Shown here: positions 5,509 through 19,959 of the stretch, piece after piece | How positions within the stretch are numbered: position 1 is the stretch's first letter | How the letters are laid out: every line of letters starts with the position of its first letter | Notes under the pieces: model-generated | Told to the model about the DNA's origin: nothing | What the model saw: only the letters and a program-made list of their open reading frames with translations | Database searches by the model: none | Assembly: GCA_041941765.1 (NCBI GenBank) | Contig: CP145869.1 | Coordinates: 180,001 to 212,000, forward strand | DNA from: Candidatus Saccharimonadota bacterium | GTDB lineage: Bacteria > Pseudomonadota > Gammaproteobacteria > Enterobacterales > Enterobacteriaceae | DNA: 32,000 bases | Reading direction: 5' to 3' | Translations under genes and position numbers: made by a program

Positions 5509-7566
5509 CTAGTTAGAAACGCATTCAAGACATTCTGCATATATGGGCATATTCTTAGACTTTAAAGATTCTAGAAATATGCTTAAATACGGATTTAAAA
5601 CCTTTATTAAATTAGGGTTCTGAGAAATAACTTTATATATTGGTTGTAGTAATTCTTTTTTAATAATTGCCATTGATAATGAATCATCGTCATCATCAGA
5701 GCTATCGCTGAAAAAAGCGTTTAAATTATACAGCAGAGCAAGATATGGATCATAAGGATTAAGCCATTCTATATATATATTCTTATTATTATCCTTATGT
5801 GCTAATTCTATAACTTTATTAATAGCGTCGTCAAAATTTCCTATCTGATCAACTAATCCTATTTTTTGAGCTTGAGAACCAGACCATACTCTACCTTCAC
5901 CAATTGAATTAATATATTGTATAGAACGATGTCTTGCCTCAGCTACTTTATATATAAAATTATCATACTCCATTTTGATGTGGGTCTTGAAAACATCTTG
6001 CTCTTGAGGAGTTAAACTCCGGAATAGAGGTGCTTTTCTTATAACAGTTGCAGTTGAGACAGGTGATTTATTTAATACAATTTGATGTATACCCAGTTTA
6101 TCCAATAATAATTTGAAATTTGGTATTACACCAAATATACCTATTGATCCAGTAATAGTATAAGGATTGGCAATTATATAATCAGTTGTAGTGGTAATTA
6201 AATAACCTCCTGATGCTGCATATTGTCCCATATAAGTTACTACTGGTTTACCTCTATTACGTAATGTCTGAAAACTGTTACGTATATTTTCTGATGGTTC
6301 TACTAGACCCCCTGGACTATCATCATATACTACAAAACCCATATATCGTGGAGATTGAGTGGCTTCCTGTATCAGATCAATGATATATTTACTATAGCCA
6401 GACGAAAGCTCTCCATCAATTTTGATCACACCAACCGTATTTCCTGTTTCTCTTTTCTGTAACGGTTTTTTAAAATTATCATGATGGGTGACTGTCTTTT
6501 CTTGATGAATATTTTCGATATAATTATTAATATTAATTTGATTAAACTTATGTAATATCTTATTACCTCCAAATTGTTGAATTATTTCATCATTAAAATC
6601 ATTTTCAGTTGTTAATTTATCAACTAAATTATTTTGAATAGCATACTTGGTAAAATCATATTTAAGCTCTTTGAGTTTGTTCAATATTTCTTTAGGGGCA
6701 GGAAAAAGTTGTTGTACTGTTATATGTCGATTTTTTGCTACAGTTTGTAAATAATGATCCCATAAATCTTTTGCTAACGATTCTCTATCAGCACGAGCAG
6801 CAGAAGACATTTCATTAAGTAATATTGGTTCAACAGCAGCTTTATACTTACCTACTTTTACTATATAAGGACTTATTCCAAGTTTGTCTAAAAAATCTTT
6901 ATAATAGTAAATTTCATTTGTTAACATACCAGATAATTCTACAAATCCCTTAGGATGGAGATAAACTTTATTAGCAAAACTTGCTAAATAATATACGTTT
7001 TGTGGATAATTCTTACTTATAGAGTAAACTGATTTACCACTCGCTTTAAATTCTTGTAATGCGTGACCCACGTAATCTAACATAGTCAGATCTGATTCAT
7101 TTTTAAAATGCGATAAATTTAAAACTATACTAGATATAGTTGGATCATATGTTGCTCTATGAATAGCATCCACTACCTCAAATAACGAAACCTTATCTGA
7201 GTATTTTAAAGATTCCATCCATGCGATTATTTTTTTTACCAAAAGTTTGTCAATAAAATTTAATTTTTTAAATTGGTCCTTTTGGGGTATTATTGGGTCG
7301 GGTAATATATATTTTACGAATGCCGACATATCTAAGACTAAAACTCGTGGTGAACTTTTATTATTTTTGAGTTGCTGATGCTGCTGCCGATGATAATTTA
7401 ATGGGATTTTAGGATTAGAATATTGATAATATTTAAATAGTAAAAACATACTTCCTATTACTAAAAAAATTAGTAAGAGATTAGCAATACCTTCACGAAC
7501 TAAACGTAAAATCCCCCAAATAGTGCTACAAAACTTCTTAATATTATGCCACACTGTCTTCATCAT
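5509..7566 (-). CDS. sppA: Signal peptide peptidase A (protease IV), tandem S49 domains
   Basis: Colinear with E. coli SppA: YLASFANK, KVGKYKAAVEP (catalytic Lys region), QYAASGGY (catalytic Ser region), TGSIGIFG, and an N-terminal TM helix. The track start at 7575 is a TTG only 1 nt after GGAG. The ATG at 7566 (or 7563) gives M(M)KTVWHNI, compared with E. coli MRTLWRFI. The protein is about 65 aa longer than E. coli's, including an acidic SSDDDDDS insert. Confidence 0.9.
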   Translation of the reverse strand: MMKTVWHNIKKFCSTIWGILRLVREGIANLLLIFLVIGSMFLLFKYYQYSNPKIPLNYHRQQHQQLKNNKSSPRVLVLDMSAFVKYILPDPIIPQKDQFKKLNFIDKLLVKKIIAWMESLKYSDKVSLFEVVDAIHRATYDPTISSIVLNLSHFKNESDLTMLDYVGHALQEFKASGKSVYSISKNYPQNVYYLASFANKVYLHPKGFVELSGMLTNEIYYYKDFLDKLGISPYIVKVGKYKAAVEPILLNEMSSAARADRESLAKDLWDHYLQTVAKNRHITVQQLFPAPKEILNKLKELKYDFTKYAIQNNLVDKLTTENDFNDEIIQQFGGNKILHKFNQININNYIENIHQEKTVTHHDNFKKPLQKRETGNTVGVIKIDGELSSGYSKYIIDLIQEATQSPRYMGFVVYDDSPGGLVEPSENIRNSFQTLRNRGKPVVTYMGQYAASGGYLITTTTDYIIANPYTITGSIGIFGVIPNFKLLLDKLGIHQIVLNKSPVSTATVIRKAPLFRSLTPQEQDVFKTHIKMEYDNFIYKVAEARHRSIQYINSIGEGRVWSGSQAQKIGLVDQIGNFDDAINKVIELAHKDNNKNIYIEWLNPYDPYLALLYNLNAFFSDSSDDDDDSLSMAIIKKELLQPIYKVISQNPNLIKVLNPYLSIFLESLKSKNMPIYAECLECVSN

Positions 7567-9097: not shown

Positions 9098-10069
9098 TTA
9101 ATATTCTATAATTACAGACACTGTATCAGTGTAATTTCCAGATGGAACATCAATTTGTGTTGGATTTATTATAGCTTTATAAGCTATTAATTGTGGAAAT
9201 CCTGTTCCAATAAATTGCTTTGTATTATTTTTATTCCAAATTAAATTATTTTCTGGATGATAGAGATTATATTGAATATAATGATTATTATTATCACTTA
9301 ATCGACGCCATTGATCCTGAAAATGGTTACCTTCAGTAAACCAAAGTTTATAATTTTCTTGTTTTGTACAACTTACTGTCATATTAATTGTTGAAGATTT
9401 AAATTGATGTATTAGTGCATGACTTCCAAAATTAATATCAGGTATATTATTAATAATACAATCTTTATTTATGATAATTTTAACTGTTATGAAAGTTGAA
9501 CCTTTCCCATTCCAAGATGAAAAACATACTAAACTACCAAATCTACAAATTGAATATTCCCAATTCATTTGAATAATATCTTGATATACTCCAGCTCTTA
9601 CATTAGCATTTGGAGAAGTTTTTATATAAAGAGGAACTCTAGAATTAGTAGAAGACAATATCATAGAAATAAGATTAAGACTTTTATAGTCAATGGAATC
9701 TCCACTTTTATAAGCATATTGATAATTTTTATCAGGATAAATCATATAAGAAATGGTATCTCCTGAACCATCTAGATTTTTTAATTGCATATTATTATAG
9801 GTTCCAATAATCTTACCTTTAATTTTATTATGTGTTAATAAAGTCATACTTAATCCAGAACAAGCTAGTCCAGAATTTCCTTCGGCTTTTATGCTACCAT
9901 TTAATACTGCAAAAGAAGTAGAATTTGATAATTCTACTTTTCCATCTGATAACCAACAATGAGCTAATACTACATTAAAAAAAAATAATTGTATTATTAC
10001 TAATGTAATAATACTAAACCAATGGATTTTAATAATAATATTATTAAAAACTAGATTTTTTATTGACAA
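9098..10069 (-). CDS. CsuE-like two-domain pilus tip subunit (putative adhesin), SCPU-type
   Basis: 323 aa and last gene of the operon. Signal peptide: IKIHWFSIITLVIIQLFFFNVVLA/HC. The C-terminal half has the SCPU pattern (NKDC...VSCTKQ Cys pair, YNLYHPENN, final strand PSGNYTDTVSVIIEY). The N-terminal half ends with a similar strand, RAGVYQDIIQMNWEY. The TTG start overlaps the usher stop by 10 nt (GTTTGTCAATAA). Confidence 0.7.
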   Translation of the reverse strand: MSIKNLVFNNIIIKIHWFSIITLVIIQLFFFNVVLAHCWLSDGKVELSNSTSFAVLNGSIKAEGNSGLACSGLSMTLLTHNKIKGKIIGTYNNMQLKNLDGSGDTISYMIYPDKNYQYAYKSGDSIDYKSLNLISMILSSTNSRVPLYIKTSPNANVRAGVYQDIIQMNWEYSICRFGSLVCFSSWNGKGSTFITVKIIINKDCIINNIPDINFGSHALIHQFKSSTINMTVSCTKQENYKLWFTEGNHFQDQWRRLSDNNNHYIQYNLYHPENNLIWNKNNTKQFIGTGFPQLIAYKAIINPTQIDVPSGNYTDTVSVIIEY

Positions 10070-12285
10070 ACTTGTTTTCCTAAATTTAATATTCCATTAG
10101 ATTTTTTAAGGTTTAATTTGACATTACAAGTTTTTCTATTATCTGATCTAATAATAGTAAGAACTTGAGGAGAGTTTTTTGGAATTCCTTCTAACCACAT
10201 TTGTCCATCCCAACCTAACCAAGTTACTCTTGATATTCCTTGAAGTTTCACTAAACTACCATTAGGTAAATAATTACCTTTTTCATCAACTATTTGGCAC
10301 AATAGTGCATGTAATTTATGAATATCAAATTCTATGAAATAACCACTATGTTTTTTAATAGGTAGTTTTTTGGTAGTTTCTGTTGCTATTACATCAGCTG
10401 GTAATTTCATAGGATCTATATCAAATTTTGATTGATACAATCCTGTAACAGTTGGAACTAGTAAAAAGCCAAACTTATTAGTTTTACCTACCAACTGATT
10501 TTCATAAAAAACTGGGATTTGATTATATCCTTTTGTAGAAATTAATGCAAAAGCATCATGAATAGGTTGAGTTACATAAATATGTTTGGCGATATTAACT
10601 ACTGAACCCTCAAACTCAATCCAAGTATTTTCATTCTTATATCGATGGCCAAAAAATCCAAATCGATTTTCAAAATATGGAGTTTTCCACCTCACATTAG
10701 CTTCATGATATTTTTCAGGTTGAGAAAGAATTACATTCCATCCTATTTCCCCATAATGATGGGTTAATATTTTATTACTCCAAATTTGATGGAAATTTAA
10801 ATACTTATTTTCATCCAGCTTGGATGAGAATGATGTATTACCCCAAACTTTTAGGGGTAAAGTGAACATAAATTGTGCATTAAAATTTTGAGGGTGATTA
10901 TTTTTACTTACAGAAGCCCATAAATTTATGCTTTTTGGTAATGTAATACTATAAGAAAGATTAATCAATCGGTTAGTCTTATCATAATTCCACGTATTTA
11001 TTAATCCTAAACTTAAATTTCCATAATGTCCAAAATTTATAGTACCAATAAGATTATTTTCCTGCTTATTAGATTCTTTTGAGAAGCGATTATAATTAAT
11101 AAAGCTATGCAAAGCACTTAAACTCAAATATGTATTATTATAATTATAACCAATAGTCATTTTTTGATTTATTGGAGTTAAAAACAATGATGATTTATTA
11201 TTCGGATGAAAGCACTTTTTAATATTATTTCCAATCCATGATAGATTCACAACTCCTAATGTCATAGGTTTAATAGTTGCACCAATTCCATATTTTAATA
11301 AATTTTGACTCCTTTCCATTTGAGCTTCTAAAGTAAGCCACGATTTTATTCCATGACTAATTATTCCACTACTTATTAAATGACGATAATTCATACCGAA
11401 TCTTTCACGTAATAGTCCTAATGAAAAACTAAAATTAGTTAATCCAGGCTTTAAAAGTTCACTTGTCACATAAAATGGTATAAAAAAAATTTTTTTTTCA
11501 TTTTTTGGAGATAAAATAACCATTTTGGCTTTACTCGAACCTTGTAAATTAGGAATAGTATTTAGTAAAATAAAAGGTCCCGGATTGATTTTTGTAGATA
11601 TCATTTTAGAATGATTAATATAAAGATTAATTCGACTTGGTTTATCTGTTTGTCCAAAAAATTTAGGTAATGGATATGTAATTATATCTGGATATAATGA
11701 AAAATTTCGAAAGAATTTTATTCCACCTATTCTTAGCGGAATAGATCCAAATAATGTGTCAGTAATACTATCTCCTAGAATATAACTGAGTAAATGTTTT
11801 TCATCATTTATTTCGAGATGAGTATCATAGCGTTTTATAGACGGTTTAGAAAGTTCATTACTCCAGCTACTTGTATTTGATAATACACCCCATTTACTAA
11901 ATATACGTAACTCTGACCAAAAGGTTAAAAAATTAACTGGATTAGAATATGAAAATAGTTGTTTACGAAAATAAATATTATAATTAAATAACCATCCAAA
12001 ATTACTTTGACTAGTTAGATTGTTTTTTAAAATATTATACTTTTTATTTAAAAATATTTTTTGGATTGGAAACCAAAAAAAGGGTACATTTATCAGTAAT
12101 TGTTGTGAATTAATATTATATTGAATATGTACATCTTTAATTTGATCTATAGCAATCCAATCGGATTTAGTGATCTTTTTTGGAAGAATAAGTCCAACAG
12201 ATTTTAATTCTTTTAATCTAATATAATAATGACTATGGTTAAAATTAACATAAATAATTTTTCCAGTTTCCATTCCATTAATCAC
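10060..12285 (-). CDS. Fimbrial outer-membrane usher (CsuD-like). The 5' boundary is uncertain: the frame stays open up to 12438.
   Basis: 741 aa from the track's GTG start. Its size, beta-rich Tyr/Gly/Asn composition and position after the chaperone fit an usher. The N-terminal ELVINGMETGKIIYV...LKELKSVGL pattern and a C-terminal domain with paired Cys (KTCNV...GKQVCQ) also fit. The in-frame upstream sequence KFIKLTLFTIVTIILLFLINFFVLGNQ is a signal peptide, so the real start should lie near 12417-12431 (see finding). Confidence 0.85.
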   Translation of the reverse strand: MINGMETGKIIYVNFNHSHYYIRLKELKSVGLILPKKITKSDWIAIDQIKDVHIQYNINSQQLLINVPFFWFPIQKIFLNKKYNILKNNLTSQSNFGWLFNYNIYFRKQLFSYSNPVNFLTFWSELRIFSKWGVLSNTSSWSNELSKPSIKRYDTHLEINDEKHLLSYILGDSITDTLFGSIPLRIGGIKFFRNFSLYPDIITYPLPKFFGQTDKPSRINLYINHSKMISTKINPGPFILLNTIPNLQGSSKAKMVILSPKNEKKIFFIPFYVTSELLKPGLTNFSFSLGLLRERFGMNYRHLISSGIISHGIKSWLTLEAQMERSQNLLKYGIGATIKPMTLGVVNLSWIGNNIKKCFHPNNKSSLFLTPINQKMTIGYNYNNTYLSLSALHSFINYNRFSKESNKQENNLIGTINFGHYGNLSLGLINTWNYDKTNRLINLSYSITLPKSINLWASVSKNNHPQNFNAQFMFTLPLKVWGNTSFSSKLDENKYLNFHQIWSNKILTHHYGEIGWNVILSQPEKYHEANVRWKTPYFENRFGFFGHRYKNENTWIEFEGSVVNIAKHIYVTQPIHDAFALISTKGYNQIPVFYENQLVGKTNKFGFLLVPTVTGLYQSKFDIDPMKLPADVIATETTKKLPIKKHSGYFIEFDIHKLHALLCQIVDEKGNYLPNGSLVKLQGISRVTWLGWDGQMWLEGIPKNSPQVLTIIRSDNRKTCNVKLNLKKSNGILNLGKQVCQ

Positions 12286-12438
12286 TAATTCTAGATAAAG
12301 CTGCTGATGATTATTCTTCTTAAGAAGAGATCTTACTTTTAATTGATTACCTAATACAAAGAAGTTTATTAAAAATAATAATATTATAGTTACAATAGTG
12401 AATAAAGTTAGTTTAATAAATTTATATCCATTTAAATA

Positions 12439-13248
12439 TTAATTTTCTGGAATTACTTTTTGAAATTCCAGATTATCGTTTACTTTAACCATTAAAGATA
12501 ATTGAGATAATCTTAATGGAAAAGGAGTGGAAAAAGATAATACGATTTCTGATTGAGGTAAAATATATTCAAGAAATCCATTATTTATTATATATGGAAT
12601 TTTTCCATTTAAAAATCTAATATCAGTGATTTTTGCATGAACTAATCCTTTATTATGAATGATTAATAATTTTTTTTCATTTTTAGTAATTATACGATAA
12701 GATAATATTGGTTTAATTATTGGTTTTAATTGGCTCAAATGTTGATAATCAATTTTTGTCCAAATATTCTTACTATTTATAAATAATGGTATTGAATAAC
12801 GCATTTTAAAATTTAAACCCCTTTGATTGTTTTTAGTTGGTTCTTCTATAAGAGGTTGAGGAATTTCATCAATAATTATCCTATAACTCCACTCGTGATC
12901 TTGCGGCGGATTTATAAGTTTTATTAATCGAATGAGTTGTTTTTTTTTCGGATAAATTTCTACCATTGGTGGACTAACAATGACTTCATGTTGTTCTAAA
13001 AGCTGATTATCATTATTAGTTTGTTTCCAACTAAAAACTCTGATTTGTACTAAAAGAGAATTATTATTATGATTTTCTAACCATAATGAAATAGCATTTT
13101 GATCAGCTTCAATTACTGGATCAAGTGGCCAAATTAAGATTGATGAATTATTGGTGGCTAATACAAATGAAGAATAACATATGATGAAATATGAGATAAT
13201 CACTCTTAATAAATTATAATATCTAGTTTTTGTTTTTTTTTTCGGCAT
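12439..13248 (-). CDS. Periplasmic pilus chaperone (CsuC-like, PapD superfamily)
   Basis: 269 aa. Signal peptide: YYNLLRVIISYFIICYSSFVLA/TNN. Motifs ILIWPLDPVIEA, LVQIRVFSWKQ, SYRIIIDEIP and FKMRYSIPLF match my recollection of A. baumannii CsuC and the general PapD-like two-domain layout. Confidence 0.85.
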   Translation of the reverse strand: MPKKKTKTRYYNLLRVIISYFIICYSSFVLATNNSSILIWPLDPVIEADQNAISLWLENHNNNSLLVQIRVFSWKQTNNDNQLLEQHEVIVSPPMVEIYPKKKQLIRLIKLINPPQDHEWSYRIIIDEIPQPLIEEPTKNNQRGLNFKMRYSIPLFINSKNIWTKIDYQHLSQLKPIIKPILSYRIITKNEKKLLIIHNKGLVHAKITDIRFLNGKIPYIINNGFLEYILPQSEIVLSFSTPFPLRLSQLSLMVKVNDNLEFQKVIPEN

Positions 13249-13266
13249 AATTTCAGTTATTAATAA

Positions 13267-13842
13267 TTAATAGCTAATAGTCACAGTAACTATATCTTCA
13301 TATTGACCCGATTCAGGTAAAAGATTAGAATTAAATAAACGTGCATAAATATAATATTGATTATTAATCATTCCTAATGTAATTACAGATTTACTCTTAC
13401 CACCATTTATATCATTTCCCCATATTATACTATGTGCAGCATCTTGAAATAATTGATAGCGTAAGATTTGATTTCCAAAAGTTTTTTTTAGTAATCGTCC
13501 CTGACTTATATTTCCAATAAGATTTTTTCCACTATCTAATGCTAAATTTACACTAACACCTGGAGTACATTTTAATCTTAATGATCCTAAATCATAATTA
13601 TAAATAGTATCTATAGGTTTTTGAAGAGAAGTAATATAACCAAAATTAATACTATTTAGATTAGTTGTTGAAACCTGATTGAATTCACAACCTTTAACAA
13701 TATTAGCAGAAATTTTAAAATTTCTACTTTTATTATTATAATTCTTCGGATTATCGGCTTGAAGATTAACTATAAATAGAGAATGTATGATTATAACAAT
13801 ACCTATTCTAAATAGAAAATATCTGCTGATGCCCATAAACAT
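13267..13842 (-). CDS. SCPU-domain minor pilin (CsuA/CsuB-like)
   Basis: 191 aa. Signal peptide ...IIIHSLFIVNLQA/DN. SCPU hallmarks: Cys pair VKGCEFN / LKCTPG, RYQLFQDAAHSIIWG, and terminal strand ESGQYEDIVTVTISY. Confidence 0.8.
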   Translation of the reverse strand: MFMGISRYFLFRIGIVIIIHSLFIVNLQADNPKNYNNKSRNFKISANIVKGCEFNQVSTTNLNSINFGYITSLQKPIDTIYNYDLGSLRLKCTPGVSVNLALDSGKNLIGNISQGRLLKKTFGNQILRYQLFQDAAHSIIWGNDINGGKSKSVITLGMINNQYYIYARLFNSNLLPESGQYEDIVTVTISY

Positions 13843-13940
13843 GAAAGAAGTCTAGTTTTTTAGAATTTATTAATAATATAAAAACATATAAAGATTTAAA
13901 AATCATCTCTTAGTTTATTTACCTACTTTAGGTTTAATTA

Positions 13941-14447
13941 TTACCAACTAACTGTAACAGTTACTGTGTCAGTATAAGTACCTGCTTTAACTGAAGGTTG
14001 TGCAGGTATACGTCCATAAATAATTAAAGAAGTTTCTTTTCCAGTTCCCATATCAGAGAATTTATTATTATCCCATAAAGTGGTATGATTGGCATCTTGA
14101 TATAAATCATATTTTATATAATCACCTTGTTCTCCTTTCATACGTCTTTGTTTTCCCTCCGCTTGTAGTCCATTATTTAGACTAATATGAAAAGTTAATC
14201 CTTTTGTACAATTTAATCCTATAGATCCGGCTTTTCCATCAGTTGATTTACCATCAATCACATTCTTAAGATTAGGATATTCTCCGAAATCTATCTTTCC
14301 AAAATGCATTAAAGTTCCTCGTGTTATTTCACAACCGTTACCGATAGTGATTCGTACGTCTAAATTATTTTCTATTTGTCCTCCTGCATAAACCTCAGCA
14401 GAAAAAAACATAATAATTGACATTATTATTGATAATACTTTTCTCAT
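13941..14447 (-). CDS. SCPU-domain major pilin (CsuA/B-like)
   Basis: 168 aa and first gene of the operon. Signal peptide MRKVLSIIMSIIMFFSAEVYA/GG. Cys pair GNGCEIT / LNCTKG, KYDLYQDANHTTLWD, and terminal strand KAGTYTDTVTVTVSW. The architecture matches Acinetobacter CsuA/B as I recall it. Confidence 0.82.
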   Translation of the reverse strand: MRKVLSIIMSIIMFFSAEVYAGGQIENNLDVRITIGNGCEITRGTLMHFGKIDFGEYPNLKNVIDGKSTDGKAGSIGLNCTKGLTFHISLNNGLQAEGKQRRMKGEQGDYIKYDLYQDANHTTLWDNNKFSDMGTGKETSLIIYGRIPAQPSVKAGTYTDTVTVTVSW

Positions 14448-14533
14448 TTTATTATTTTAGTTGTTAGATAAATCATAATCTTATAGATTATAAGTGTAAA
14501 ATAACTCAATGATTTGTCAATTTTCAGTACGAA

Positions 14534-15460
14534 TTATTTTTTAATTTGATTAATATTATTTGGATTATAAAAAGATGACATCATATAACGTAAAAATGGA
14601 TGATGAATATCTAAAATAATAAAAGTGTTATGAGAGTGAAAAATGTTTTTATAAGCGTGCAAAGTACGAATAAAACTATAAAAATTAATATCATTATTAA
14701 AATAAGTGGTAAATAATTTATTTACCAATAAATCAGTGTCTCCATGTATAATATATGCTTGTTTTTTAGCTTGAGCTATAATAGCTATTACTTTATAATC
14801 TGCAAGAGCACGAATTTTTTCAGCTTTTTCTTTACCTTGAGAACTATGAAAATTAGCATCTGCCTTTTGTTCTACACGCATTCTTTTATATATAGCATCT
14901 AATACTTCAGAAGGTAAATTAATTTTATTAATACGCACATCAATTATTTGAATACCTAAGAGATTATGTCTAATATCAATAATACTTTCATTTAATTGTT
15001 GACGTAAAATTGAAGTTACGATTTTTCGTGAATCAGTTACAATATCTTTTACATTTAAACGTCCTATTTCAGAACGAAGTCTATCACTAAAGGTTTTTCT
15101 AAGAAAATTTTCTATTTTCTCAATATGTCCTCCTGTACTAACATAGAAACGATTCAAATCAGTAATACGCCATTTTATATATGAATCTACAAAAATATCT
15201 TTTTTTTCTTGGGTTATAAATTTCTCATTTTTATTTTCCATTGTTTGAATACGAACATCAAAAATTTTTTCTTTTTCAATTAATGGATTTTTCAAATGTA
15301 ATCCAGGCAATAATATTCCTGAATTATTATTAATATTACGTACAATTTTACCAAAACGTAATAAAATCCCTCTTTGACCTTCTTGAATCACAAAAAAAGA
15401 TGAATAGAGTAATATGAAAAGTATTGTAAAAAATATAATTATTAAAATAGATTTACGCAT
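14534..15460 (-). CDS. hflC: FtsH-modulating SPFH protein HflC
   Basis: Colinear with E. coli HflC: MRKS..., VIQEGQRGILLRFGK, DSYIKWRITD, FSDRLRSEIGRLNVKDIVTDSR, INLPSEV. ATG start with AGGAAA 9 nt upstream. Confidence 0.93.
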   Translation of the reverse strand: MRKSILIIIFFTILFILLYSSFFVIQEGQRGILLRFGKIVRNINNNSGILLPGLHLKNPLIEKEKIFDVRIQTMENKNEKFITQEKKDIFVDSYIKWRITDLNRFYVSTGGHIEKIENFLRKTFSDRLRSEIGRLNVKDIVTDSRKIVTSILRQQLNESIIDIRHNLLGIQIIDVRINKINLPSEVLDAIYKRMRVEQKADANFHSSQGKEKAEKIRALADYKVIAIIAQAKKQAYIIHGDTDLLVNKLFTTYFNNDINFYSFIRTLHAYKNIFHSHNTFIILDIHHPFLRYMMSSFYNPNNINQIKK

Positions 15461-15587
15461 TAGTTTATTTCCTAACGAACACGTTTTGCATTAGTTTTAC
15501 ATTGATTCAATATAATATTACTAATATTAGGATTCTTCTGACAATGTTTCATATTCATGATAAATAAATTTCTATGGTTGATTATTA

Positions 15588-16628
15588 TCAATTCAATTGA
15601 TAGATATGGTTTTTCTTAGAAAAATTTTTTAAGGGTACAAATAAAAAAAGATTCTTATTATTAGAAGACATAATAACTATCTTATTAGTATGTATTAAAA
15701 TATCTTCCATAGTTTCAATATATAACCGTTCTTTAATAAATTCCGAAGCTTTTTTATATACAGGTAAAATCTTTGCAATTTGTATGATTTCTCCTTGAGC
15801 TTCTAATATAGTACGTGTTTTATAAGCATTAGCATTTATAATTATGTGTTGTGCTTTACCACGTGCTTGTGATTGTACTTGATTAGCATAAGATTCTGCT
15901 TCATGAACATATTGTTGTTCATTTTCTCGTGCAATAATTGCATCATAAAAAGCAGATTTTACCTCTTTAGGAGGACAAATAGTTGGCAAATTTACATCTA
16001 GCAATGTAATTCCCATATTATACTGATTAATAGTTTTTTTTAATTCATCTTTCATATCTTGACGAATAAGAGTATGACCTTTAGTCAAAATAGTATTTAT
16101 GTTAAATTTTCCAATTATATCACGTAAAACACTATTAGTAGCCTGTTTTAAGTTCATCTTAGGATTAGTAACTGAAAAAAGATAATTTCTTGGATTACTA
16201 ATACGATATTGTATATTCATTTCTACGTTAATTAAATTTTCATCAGAAGTTAATATTATTCCTGTAGTAACAATTTCACGTACAGCTTCTACATTGATAG
16301 GATATACTCTATCTATAAATTGTAATTTCCAATTTAAACCTGGAAGAACTATATTACTAAATTTGCCAAATCTAGTCACTACACCGCGATCAGATTCTTT
16401 AATAGTATAAAATCCACTTATCAACCAAAGTATTATCATAATAATGAATATTATTAAAATTACTGGGCAATATTTATTACGATTACCTATTATTAAATCA
16501 AATAAGTTTTTTAACTTATTCGATCTATTTTCATTATGATTAGTATTGATTGTATCATAAGGATTTTCATCTCCCCAAGGATTACCATATTTTTTGATAA
16601 TTTTTTCATAATATTGATATATATTCAT
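15588..16628 (-). CDS. hflK: FtsH-modulating SPFH protein HflK (shortened low-complexity N- and C-terminal tails)
   Basis: SGFYTIKESDRGVVTRFGKFS, PGLNWK, MGITLLDVN, ARENEQQYVHEAESYANQV and RLYIETME are all colinear with E. coli HflK. It is 346 aa against about 419 because the Gly/Ser-rich tails are missing. Confidence 0.93.
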   Translation of the reverse strand: MNIYQYYEKIIKKYGNPWGDENPYDTINTNHNENRSNKLKNLFDLIIGNRNKYCPVILIIFIIMIILWLISGFYTIKESDRGVVTRFGKFSNIVLPGLNWKLQFIDRVYPINVEAVREIVTTGIILTSDENLINVEMNIQYRISNPRNYLFSVTNPKMNLKQATNSVLRDIIGKFNINTILTKGHTLIRQDMKDELKKTINQYNMGITLLDVNLPTICPPKEVKSAFYDAIIARENEQQYVHEAESYANQVQSQARGKAQHIIINANAYKTRTILEAQGEIIQIAKILPVYKKASEFIKERLYIETMEDILIHTNKIVIMSSNNKNLFLFVPLKNFSKKNHIYQLN

Positions 16629-16729
16629 TTGTATTACACCACATATAACTCAACTTAATAATTCTTTATTAATTCAAGATTAGAAAATCTAACTTATTAT
16701 TATTTTTAATCTTCAGATAATAATAAGTA

Positions 16730-17683
16730 CTATGATTTTTTATCAAATAATTTCAGTAGATTTTCAGATGCTAAATTAAGATCCTCATTATTAAGCCAGT
16801 AAGTATTTTTCCATTTACGTAACCAAGTTAACTGATGTTTCGCTAAATGACGTGTTGCATAAATTGCTTGTTTTAACATTTCGTGATAATTAATATTTCC
16901 TTCTATATACGACCACATTTGACGATAACCAACACAACGAATAGAAGGCATATTATGATGTAAATCTCCTCTCAAAAATAATTTTTGAACCTCATTTTCA
17001 AAACCTTCCTGTATCATTTTAAGGAAACGTTGTTCAATTAAATGATATAATTTATATCGACATGAAGGATACAGTACAAATTGAATAATATCATATTCTA
17101 AGTCATTATTATTTTTAAATCTATTTAATGTAGTCAATGTCTTACCAGAAATTAAACAAACTTCTATTGCTCGTGATATTCTTTGTCGATCATTACAATT
17201 AATTCTGCAAGCTGCTATTGGATCTAATTGATATAATTGTTGGTGAAGATTTGGCCAACCTTGTTGAAGAGCTTGTTTGTAAATATATTGACGTATTATA
17301 TAATGGGATGTTGGTAAATATGATAGTCCTTCCATTAAGATTTTAAAATAAAGCATAGATCCACCTACTAATAAAGGTAGTCTACCCTGCTTAGTAATAT
17401 AATCCATTTTTTTTATAGCATCTTTTCTAAACTCCGCTACCGAATAAATTTCTGATGGATCACGAATATTTAATAAATGATGTGGAACTTTATCTAATTG
17501 TTGATATGTAGGTTTAGCAGTACCAATATTCATTTCTCTATAAACCATCGCGGAATCAACACTTATTATTTCTACTGGAAGAAATTTACTTAATTTTAGA
17601 GCTAATTCAGTTTTTCCTGATGCAGTGGGACCCATTAAACAAATTGCTTTAGGTACGTGATTTTTTTGATTATTTATTATCAT
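16730..17683 (-). CDS. miaA: tRNA dimethylallyltransferase
   Basis: P-loop LMGPTASGKT, DSAMVYREMNIGTAKP and VGGSMLYFK; 317 aa. The start ATG lies inside the last codons of mutL (14-nt overlap). Confidence 0.95.
   Translation of the reverse strand: MIINNQKNHVPKAICLMGPTASGKTELALKLSKFLPVEIISVDSAMVYREMNIGTAKPTYQQLDKVPHHLLNIRDPSEIYSVAEFRKDAIKKMDYITKQGRLPLLVGGSMLYFKILMEGLSYLPTSHYIIRQYIYKQALQQGWPNLHQQLYQLDPIAACRINCNDRQRISRAIEVCLISGKTLTTLNRFKNNNDLEYDIIQFVLYPSCRYKLYHLIEQRFLKMIQEGFENEVQKLFLRGDLHHNMPSIRCVGYRQMWSYIEGNINYHEMLKQAIYATRHLAKHQLTWLRKWKNTYWLNNEDLNLASENLLKLFDKKS

Positions 17684-19883: not shown

Positions 19884-19959
<76 letters not shown>

Follow-up and report, generated by a model that had tools for sequence, protein, structure and literature searches.

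A reduced archaic chaperone-usher pilus operon in Candidatus Dasytiphilus stammeri, a bacteriome symbiont of dasytine beetles

Surface organelles are normally lost from obligate bacteriome symbionts whose genomes are as small as about 0.45 Mb. A stretch of 32,000 nucleotides (nt) from the genome of an obligate insect symbiont (contig CP145869.1 of assembly GCA_041941765.1, positions 180,001 to 212,000 of the forward strand, hereafter the window) was found to contain an operon of the archaic (sigma, Csu/CupE-type) chaperone-usher family, and this assignment is secure. The operon consists of five tightly packed, co-oriented open reading frames (ORFs) on the minus strand at window positions 9098-14447, in the order major pilin, minor pilin, chaperone, usher and tip adhesin. 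It is probably a vertically inherited, reduced archaic pilus operon that has been kept by purifying selection, with adhesion during an extracellular phase as its most likely use.

The usher encoded in the window was 100% identical to a protein from a metagenome-assembled genome of Candidatus Dasytiphilus stammeri, located on a 464-kb contig, and an independent Logan assembly of SRR27812163 matched the window base for base over 14.3 kb. Dasytiphilus is a bacteriome symbiont of dasytine beetles that supplies its host with tyrosine, and 20 of its genomes, ranging in size from 437 to 601 kb, were published in 2024 (PMC11191362).

Profile searches of the five products matched all three of the SCPU, PapD-like chaperone and fimbrial usher families, with Pfam matches far beyond chance. 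SCPU domains were detected in the major pilin, pil1 (13941-14447, 168 amino acids (aa), 2.6e-35), in the minor pilin, pil2 (13267-13842, 191 aa, 3.2e-24), and twice in the two-domain tip adhesin (9098-10069, 323 aa, 4.3e-36), while the periplasmic chaperone (12439-13248, 269 aa) matched PapD_N (4e-19). The outer-membrane usher occupies an open frame of 792 codons (10060-12438), of which the ORF from the first GTG comprises 10060-12285 (741 aa) and gave an Usher match (1.6e-21) and a weak PapC_C match; the tip gene overlaps the usher by 10 nt. Each of the five translations, when read for export signals, shows a signal peptide and an AXA-like cleavage site. Together with matches to solved structures, these results support the Csu-type, SCPU-pilin chaperone-usher operon proposed in a first-pass annotation that was made from the sequence alone. 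Its coordinates for the five ORFs were confirmed, its usher length of 'at least 741 aa' was correct, and the motifs that it quoted (C-terminal strands, Cys pairs, LIWP, VQIRVFSWKQ and FKMRYSIPLF) were all present in the translations. The csuA/B-(A/B)-C-D-E layout that it described was right as to gene order, which is also that of the Serratia orthologs, but the window does not have a complete csuA/B-A-B-C-D-E set, with the gene at the csuA position having been lost and pil2 corresponding to the third gene of a six-gene ancestor.

The first pilin, pil1, carries a single Cys pair and an N-terminal donor strand (GGQIENNLDVRITIG), and its signal peptide ends in VYA. Its best solved relatives were the CupE pilus subunit (8cio_A, 2.1e-22) and CsuA/B (1.3e-09), with alignments that begin at the donor strand and reach the C terminus. 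When the donor strands were compared at the sequence level, IENNLDVRITIGNGCEI of pil1 aligned with LIGQVGVQMVIGAGCTI of 8cio_A, and pil2 was found to have RNFKISANIVKGCEF; in both pilins, hydrophobic residues alternate along the strand, and the first Cys of the conserved pair comes after it. Identity of pil1 was 71-78% to its Dasytes-clade orthologs and 52% to those of the Listrus and Dasytastes clades. Judged by these matches, pil1 is the predicted equivalent of CsuA/B and CupE1, the major pilin. The second pilin, pil2, has a signal peptide ending in LQA, a donor-strand-like segment (RNFKISANIVKG) and a Cys pair. Its orthologs are the third of the six genes in the Serratia operon (38% identity) and pilY of the D. 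niger symbiont (locus L005, 73% identity), and pil2 is the probable adaptor at the csuB position.

The chaperone aligned with CsuC (5d6h_A) at 1.9e-32 over residues 36-240, as compared to 5e-05 for the best classical chaperone, YadV, and can be assigned as the non-classical equivalent of CsuC and CupE4. The tip protein is the equivalent of CsuE and CupE6. Its gene has a TTG start that overlaps the 3' end of the usher gene, and the product has a signal peptide ending in VLA and, instead of a donor strand, an extra N-terminal domain. Full-length alignment to CsuE (6fjy_B) was obtained at 1.8e-12, and an AlphaFold2 model with a predicted local distance difference test score (pLDDT) of 81 had 6fjy_B as its top Foldseek match (E 1.4e-19, template modelling (TM) scores 0.61/0.66). 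All six Cys residues of the tip protein were invariant in 11 homologs. Finger loops mediate the binding of CsuE-type tips to hydrophobic surfaces, and all three fingers of CsuE are hydrophobic (L40ALA43, I140VGIGV145 and L157GI159; PMC6003481). Finger 1 of the window tip reads GLSMTLLT, as against GFSLALA in CsuE, and MTLL, the counterpart of finger 1, is conserved. In place of the region of CsuE fingers 2 and 3 there is a short loop with a Cys at either end, C-RFGSLV-C in Dasytiphilus and C-GLGLIGL-C in Serratia.

The usher is the predicted equivalent of CsuD and CupE5. Its identity to orthologs was 62-70% within the Dasytes clade, 43% to the Dasytastes clade, about 37% to Serratia and only about 30% to Pseudomonas homologs, and its C-terminal Cys pair was invariant. 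A sequence search of the PDB with the usher returned only spurious leucine-rich repeat kinase matches and a weak match to the PapC C terminus; apparently no archaic usher structure has been solved so far.

Classical (type 1 or P) fimbriae were considered and rejected. No match to the classical Fimbrial fold (PF00419) was found by Pfam among the operon subunits, and the tip model reached a TM score of only 0.39 against FimH-type adhesins in Foldseek. An NCBIfam scan identified no equivalog, with classical usher and chaperone models scoring far below their cut-offs (e.g. 56.6 vs 752 bits) and no match for the pilins or the tip protein.

Six-gene operons, consisting of pil1, pilX, pilY, chaperone, usher and tip genes, are present in Serratia, Yersinia, Limnobaculum and some Pseudomonas, and comparison with Dasytiphilus suggests that the Serratia-type operon is likely the ancestral form. 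The window genes are one-to-one orthologs of those in Serratia, with identities of 41% for pil1, 38% for pilY (the window pil2), 42% for the chaperone, 37% for the usher and 46% for the tip protein, which was the best-conserved protein of the operon in this comparison; identity of pilX between Dasytiphilus and Serratia was 36%. The tip adhesin and the major pilin were the best-conserved components both across clades and against Serratia. All three pilins are kept in the D. niger symbiont. In the window and its Dasytes-clade relatives, pilX (the csuA position), which lies between pil1 and pilY in Serratia and L005, is gone, and the 98-nt spacer at its former site (13843-13940) contained no pilX remnant, either as an ORF or by similarity. 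The Dasytastes clade has instead lost pilY (the csuB position) and has pilX as its sole minor pilin, while both minor pilins have been lost in the Listrus clade, leaving pil1, chaperone, usher and tip genes that are all open. The invariant core is therefore the rod pilin, chaperone, usher and tip adhesin.

The Csu system of Acinetobacter baumannii shares with the window operon its SCPU pilins with a donor strand, a CsuC-like chaperone, an usher, a two-domain CsuE-like tip and the gene order. The window operon differs in having one minor pilin, with the csuA-position gene lost, and in the tip, where finger 2 is shorter by about 16 residues, has a Cys on either side and contains an Arg or Lys, and finger 3 is absent. 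It also differs in that its host lives as an obligate symbiont of insects and has a genome of 0.46 Mb, and in that no BfmRS-type regulator is in view. With one of the two adaptor pilins missing, and also the CsuE finger architecture, the window operon would not be classed as Csu in the strict sense. The CupE system of Pseudomonas aeruginosa (cupE1-E6) has the six-gene ancestral layout, and pil1 is nearer to the CupE subunit than to CsuA/B. Control of CupE lies with the PprAB two-component system, whereas no regulator gene adjoining the operon was seen in the window. The operons of Serratia, Yersinia and Budviciaceae share one-to-one orthology, gene order and a Cys-stapled finger-2 loop in the tip with the window operon, but have the full six genes and occur in free-living hosts with large genomes and in another genomic neighbourhood; their finger 2 is purely hydrophobic (GLGLIGL), in contrast to RFGSLV in Dasytiphilus. 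The closest kin are CupE for the pilin, the solved Csu proteins for the chaperone and tip, and the uncharacterised Serratia/Yersinia operon in terms of orthology. A further six-gene SCPU operon, with a tip protein 44% identical to that of the window, was observed on a 23.8-kb contig of free-living type in the Logan assembly of SRR32665175, where its neighbours are a two-component system resembling CusRS and two fimbrial genes of the classical PF00419 type.

The genomic position of the operon, in the order hflK-hflC-[operon]-terC-mutH, was identical in every Dasytiphilus locus examined. These loci were from the symbionts of D. alpigradus, D. aeratus, D. virens and D. niger, from CP145876, from two Listrus-clade genomes and, on the Dasytastes side, from the symbionts of Dasytastes bicolor, Dasytastes sp01, Dasytastes sp02 and D. 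seminudus. Since the same slot is occupied in all examined clades, the operon predates the diversification of the symbiont; it would have been present in the last common ancestor and vertically inherited since. The GC content of the operon was 23-28%, equal to that of its neighbours, and no mobile-element genes or flanking tRNA were found at the operon. The first-pass annotation had described the operon as matching or exceeding its neighbours in AT-richness and as long-resident rather than recently acquired, and both descriptions agree with these data.

Selection was assessed from the ratio of non-synonymous to synonymous substitution rates (dN/dS), estimated pairwise by NG86 among the Dasytes-clade loci, comprising the window and L002-L005. 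Values were 0.23-0.54 for the operon genes and 0.26-0.46 for mutL, miaA, terC and mutH; the extreme AT bias, which compresses dS and inflates dN/dS, weakens any argument from the absolute values and leaves only the comparison with neighbouring genes as meaningful. On the window branch, neither dN nor dN/dS of the operon genes was raised relative to neighbouring genes, and the acceleration ratio of the usher was 1.45-1.72, as compared to 1.15-2.1 in neighbours. When the nucleotide differences observed between the window and L003 were placed at random, as if unconstrained, about 56 stop codons were expected across the five genes and none was observed. This pattern indicates that the operon is under purifying selection, in line with the argument for selection made in the first-pass annotation.

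Several further observations weigh against a functional, retained pilus. In A. baumannii, each of the four subunit types (CsuA/B, CsuA and CsuB, plus CsuE) was reported as required for functional pili (PMC6003481), whereas one or both adaptor pilins are missing in Dasytiphilus and the window operon has three subunit genes only. The published gene table shows that the operon was kept in 16 of the 20 genomes but was absent from the other four, namely those of two Danacea nigritarsis symbionts and of the symbionts of Dasytes lineellus and Listrus sp. 07, the last with a chaperone remnant flagged as non-functional (PMC11191362). These losses occurred independently in Danacea, D. lineellus and Listrus sp. 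07, and the operon is thus dispensable in some hosts. The target of the tip may also differ from the hydrophobic surfaces bound by CsuE, because finger 2 is much shorter and has a conserved basic residue; this conserved Arg or Lys suggests a target that is perhaps not purely hydrophobic. In addition, the first canonical start codons of the window usher (GTG at 12285 and ATG at 12273) lie downstream of its signal peptide, and a deletion of about 29 nt has removed from the pil1 leader an AAAGGA that is conserved in four sisters. The lesions in the usher start and pil1 leader may be the first steps of decay. To call the operon intact goes too far for the window strain: its reading frames are all open, but the usher start has changed from TTG to TTA and the Shine-Dalgarno leader of pil1 is deleted.

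The open usher frame follows directly upon the chaperone stop codon (12441-12439) and encodes a signal-peptide-like stretch, KFIKLTLFTIVTIILLFLINFFVLG, yet no ATG, GTG or TTG is present in this frame before the GTG at 12285. In sister lineages, the usher starts two codons past the chaperone stop, within TAA-NNN-TTG-AAT-GGA-TAT-AA(A/G). This TTG is kept in the symbionts of D. alpigradus, D. aeratus and D. virens and in L003, while alignment to these lineages placed a TTA at the same site in the window (12433-12435, minus strand; G to A at 12433), and in the window the usher start codon is truly lost. The window usher is annotated in GenBank at 737 aa; two sister ushers are also annotated as short proteins (736 and 743 aa) despite the presence of TTG, which indicates an annotation choice.

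Other routes of initiation can be read from the window sequence. An out-of-frame ATG (12431-12429) opens a mini-ORF, MDINLLN, of eight codons including its stop at 12410-12408, within which are a heptamer, A_AAT_TTA (12423-12417), and an ATT (12417-12415) that is near-cognate and in the usher frame. A -1 slip on the heptamer would shift ribosomes that read the ATG frame into that of the usher, and is put forward as a possibility only. The heptamer was inherited and is not particular to the window strain. The idea that the usher normally starts through a programmed -1 frameshift that is conserved was rejected because two sisters with a good TTG start have AAGTTTA in place of the heptamer. As a separate observation, the sequence AATGGATATAAATTTATTAAA at the usher gene's 5' end was conserved across lineages at the nucleotide level yet is read in different frames: the start is ATG-GAT in the D. 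niger and Dasytastes symbionts and a TTG located 4 nt upstream, in the -1 frame, in the Dasytes-clade sisters. The two frames re-converge within the signal peptide (window 12408-12438; L005 7999-8060; L003 7857-7900).

A candidate sigma-70 promoter is located at 14493-14520 on the minus strand, inside the 86-nt spacer between hflC and pil1, and consists of TTGACA (14520-14515), a 16-nt spacer and TACACT (14498-14493). This was the best-scoring promoter-like site in the region, where the number of such sites equalled the shuffle expectation, and the promoter call consequently rests on conservation across lineages. Among five Dasytiphilus lineages the block TTGACAAAT.A...GA.TT.TTTTACACTT did not vary, while the non-coding sequence around it had diverged, a pattern that can be read as the phylogenetic footprint of the candidate promoter. 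Downstream of this site, the pil1 leader was compared between the window (14448-14492), L002 (6040-6092), L003 (5815-5868), L004 and L005. The four sisters share a near-identical leader of about 57 nt, ATATCATTCATTGATCATATCCATATATGATGA.ATAACTAAAAGGATA.TCAAT, with a short palindrome and, as its Shine-Dalgarno sequence, the AAAGGA missing from the window, which is one of few such sequences in Dasytiphilus genomes. Most of this leader is gone from the window. RNA folding of the sister leaders was no better than that of shuffled sequences (z 0.5 to -0.05) and no claim of a riboregulator is therefore made. A consensus terminator scan detected no terminator after pil1. Downstream of pil1, a perfect inverted repeat, GGATTCC-N8-GGAATCC, was observed in L003 (~6470-6500) and L004 (~6440-6470) and could set pilin stoichiometry by acting as an attenuator or stabiliser; the window spacer between pil1 and pil2 has only a 5-bp hairpin, ACCTA-AAG-TAGGT, directly after the pil1 stop codon.

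The lesions raise the tentative alternative that the operon is newly non-functional in the window strain, with frames that are too young as pseudogenes to have acquired stop codons; this strain would then be following the four lineages from which the operon has already been deleted. Such a decay would account for the replacement of a TTG that all four sister lineages examined have kept, on the sequence of which two assemblies agree, and for the loss of AAAGGA upstream of pil1. It would also fit with the independent losses of the operon elsewhere and with the relaxed appearance of the adjacent hflK and hflC on the window branch, which implies that regional erosion is active. Against this, no stop codon or frameshift has arisen in 5.3 kb at about 25% GC, window-branch dN/dS was 0.24-0.52 for all operon genes tested and not near 1, and the promoter footprint is intact in the window. 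Moreover, most genes in Dasytiphilus genomes have no Shine-Dalgarno sequence, and routes to usher synthesis through the in-frame ATT or through the ATG and slippery heptamer are still present. As dN/dS is not raised on the window branch, the system, if it is off, must have gone off recently. Retention of an operon under purifying selection is considered the better explanation of this evidence, and in the window strain the usher might be made at a low level by non-canonical initiation (at ATT or by a -1 slip), or the system might have been switched off very recently.

From homology with characterised systems, we infer how the pilus would be expressed and assembled and what it might bind. All five products would be exported through the Sec pathway and cleaved by signal peptidase I, DsbA would form the disulfide in each subunit, and the CsuC-like chaperone would cap subunits by donor-strand complementation. 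The usher, placed in the outer membrane by BamA, would begin assembly with the two-domain tip adhesin, then add pil2 as the sole adaptor and polymerise pil1 by donor-strand exchange into a thin pilus, whose tip-domain protruding loops would bind a surface. This standard pathway is feasible because secY, lepB, bamA and dsbA are listed in the published gene table, the first three in 20 of 20 genomes (PMC11191362). Only the two Danacea nigritarsis symbionts, in which the operon is also absent, have no dsbA in this table, while D. lineellus and Listrus sp. 07 symbionts have kept dsbA and are without the operon (PMC11191362). Pilus subunits may be among the main remaining clients of DsbA.

Transmission of Dasytiphilus through the gut and egg surface, an unusual route, has been proposed as a hypothesis, and symbionts have been seen in the gut but never in ovaries (PMC11191362). 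A role of the pilus in adhesion during such transmission is plausible, and could involve adhesion or aggregation in gut passage, in the egg-surface smear or in colonisation of the larval bacteriome. The idea of a role in host attachment or vertical transmission, raised in the first-pass annotation, fits with the proposed route, for which an adhesive pilus would be needed, with the function itself being conjectural. More speculatively, it is possible that the pilus is specifically a transmission or colonisation organelle, acting on the egg surface or in larval gut-to-bacteriome passage, and that an archaic pilus can work without CsuA/CsuB-type adaptors, although we hold this combined proposal with limited confidence. 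If it is true, the series of six-, five- and four-gene operons would show that a pilus needs only rod pilin, chaperone, usher and tip, and the four operon-less lineages would be predicted to transmit differently.

A less probable use is inside the host, where the pilus could serve for aggregation between symbionts or for anchoring to the symbiosomal or bacteriocyte membrane. Csu pili are reported to stack antiparallel and so build three-dimensional biofilms (PMC12996565), and the operon is kept in strains reported to have no peptidoglycan synthesis (PMC11191362). A precedent is provided by Serratia symbiotica STs and SCc, co-obligate and bacteriocyte-bound symbionts that retain a four-gene 'type-1 fimbriae-like' system (Manzano-Marin et al. 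2016, PMC4898801), a retention that has been read as a need of intracellular life (PMC4898801). The content of this system, pilin, chaperone, usher and adhesin, is that of the Listrus-clade Dasytiphilus operon, but it is described as type-1-like, i.e. classical, and no S. symbiotica protein was among the best 120 of 866 matches to the Serratia usher. S. symbiotica STs and SCc are transmitted internally and have larger genomes, of about 0.65 and 1.76 Mb. Use within the host is, however, not set apart from transmission-stage adhesion by the sequence, most bacteriome symbionts have no pilus, and four Dasytiphilus lineages living in the same organ type have lost the operon. Recent horizontal acquisition, e.g. 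from a beetle-gut Serratia or Pseudomonas, would be in keeping with the nearest free-living homologs, which are 30-46% identical and come from Serratia, Yersinia, Limnobaculum and Pseudomonas, but is effectively refuted by the insertion slot shared by all clades, by between-clade divergence that tracks that of flanking housekeeping genes, by the GC content and lack of mobile-element genes or flanking tRNA, and by Serratia copies that are not flanked by hflC, terC or mutH.

The operon genes were already annotated in GenBank. They also appear in the supplementary orthogroup table of the 2024 study, where they are listed as KEGG cupE (the label given to the pilins), fimC and fimD under 'two-component system', while pili, fimbriae and ushers are not mentioned in the text of that paper (PMC11191362). 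Literature searches found no paper on a pilus of the chaperone-usher type for Dasytiphilus or for any bacteriome symbiont whose genome is about 0.5 Mb in size, and S. symbiotica was the only precedent found for chaperone-usher systems or fimbriae in reduced bacteriome symbionts. What is new is the recognition of the system and the comparative picture, neither a new mechanism nor a new family. A conserved adhesin system provides a concrete molecular lead on the passage of the symbiont from mother to offspring, and the 16 operon-carrying and four operon-less genomes form a natural comparison that makes the question of transmission directly testable. The stepwise loss of minor pilins bears on whether CsuA/CsuB-type adaptors are truly essential.

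Other features of the window and its sister loci were observed in the vicinity of the operon. A single tRNA, tRNA-Gly at 19884-19959, was the only match in an Rfam scan of the whole window. On the window branch, hflK and hflC (14534-16628) had dN/dS of about 0.7-1.1 and evolved 1.2- to 4.7-fold faster than in sisters, as compared to dN/dS of 0.25-0.45 for other neighbours, and hflK is shorter in the window (346 aa) than in sisters (386-425 aa). The HflKC complex thus looks to be under relaxed selection in the window strain. No hflK was called in the Dasytastes bicolor symbiont (L006 3575-4952) or in one Listrus-clade genome (L088 1741-3130), each of which has a gap of about 1.4 kb at this position, with weak Band_7-like similarity in L088; the gap may represent a pseudogene. 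The deletion of hfq and hflX noted in the first-pass annotation was borne out, both genes being missing between miaA (ending at 16730) and hflK (starting at 16628). The hfq gene is absent from the 101 nt between miaA and hflK in the window (16629-16729) and from other Dasytes-clade loci, and is kept between these genes in the D. niger symbiont (L005 2923-3183). In the Dasytastes clade, lysA is inserted between the tip gene and terC (L006 11384-12643).

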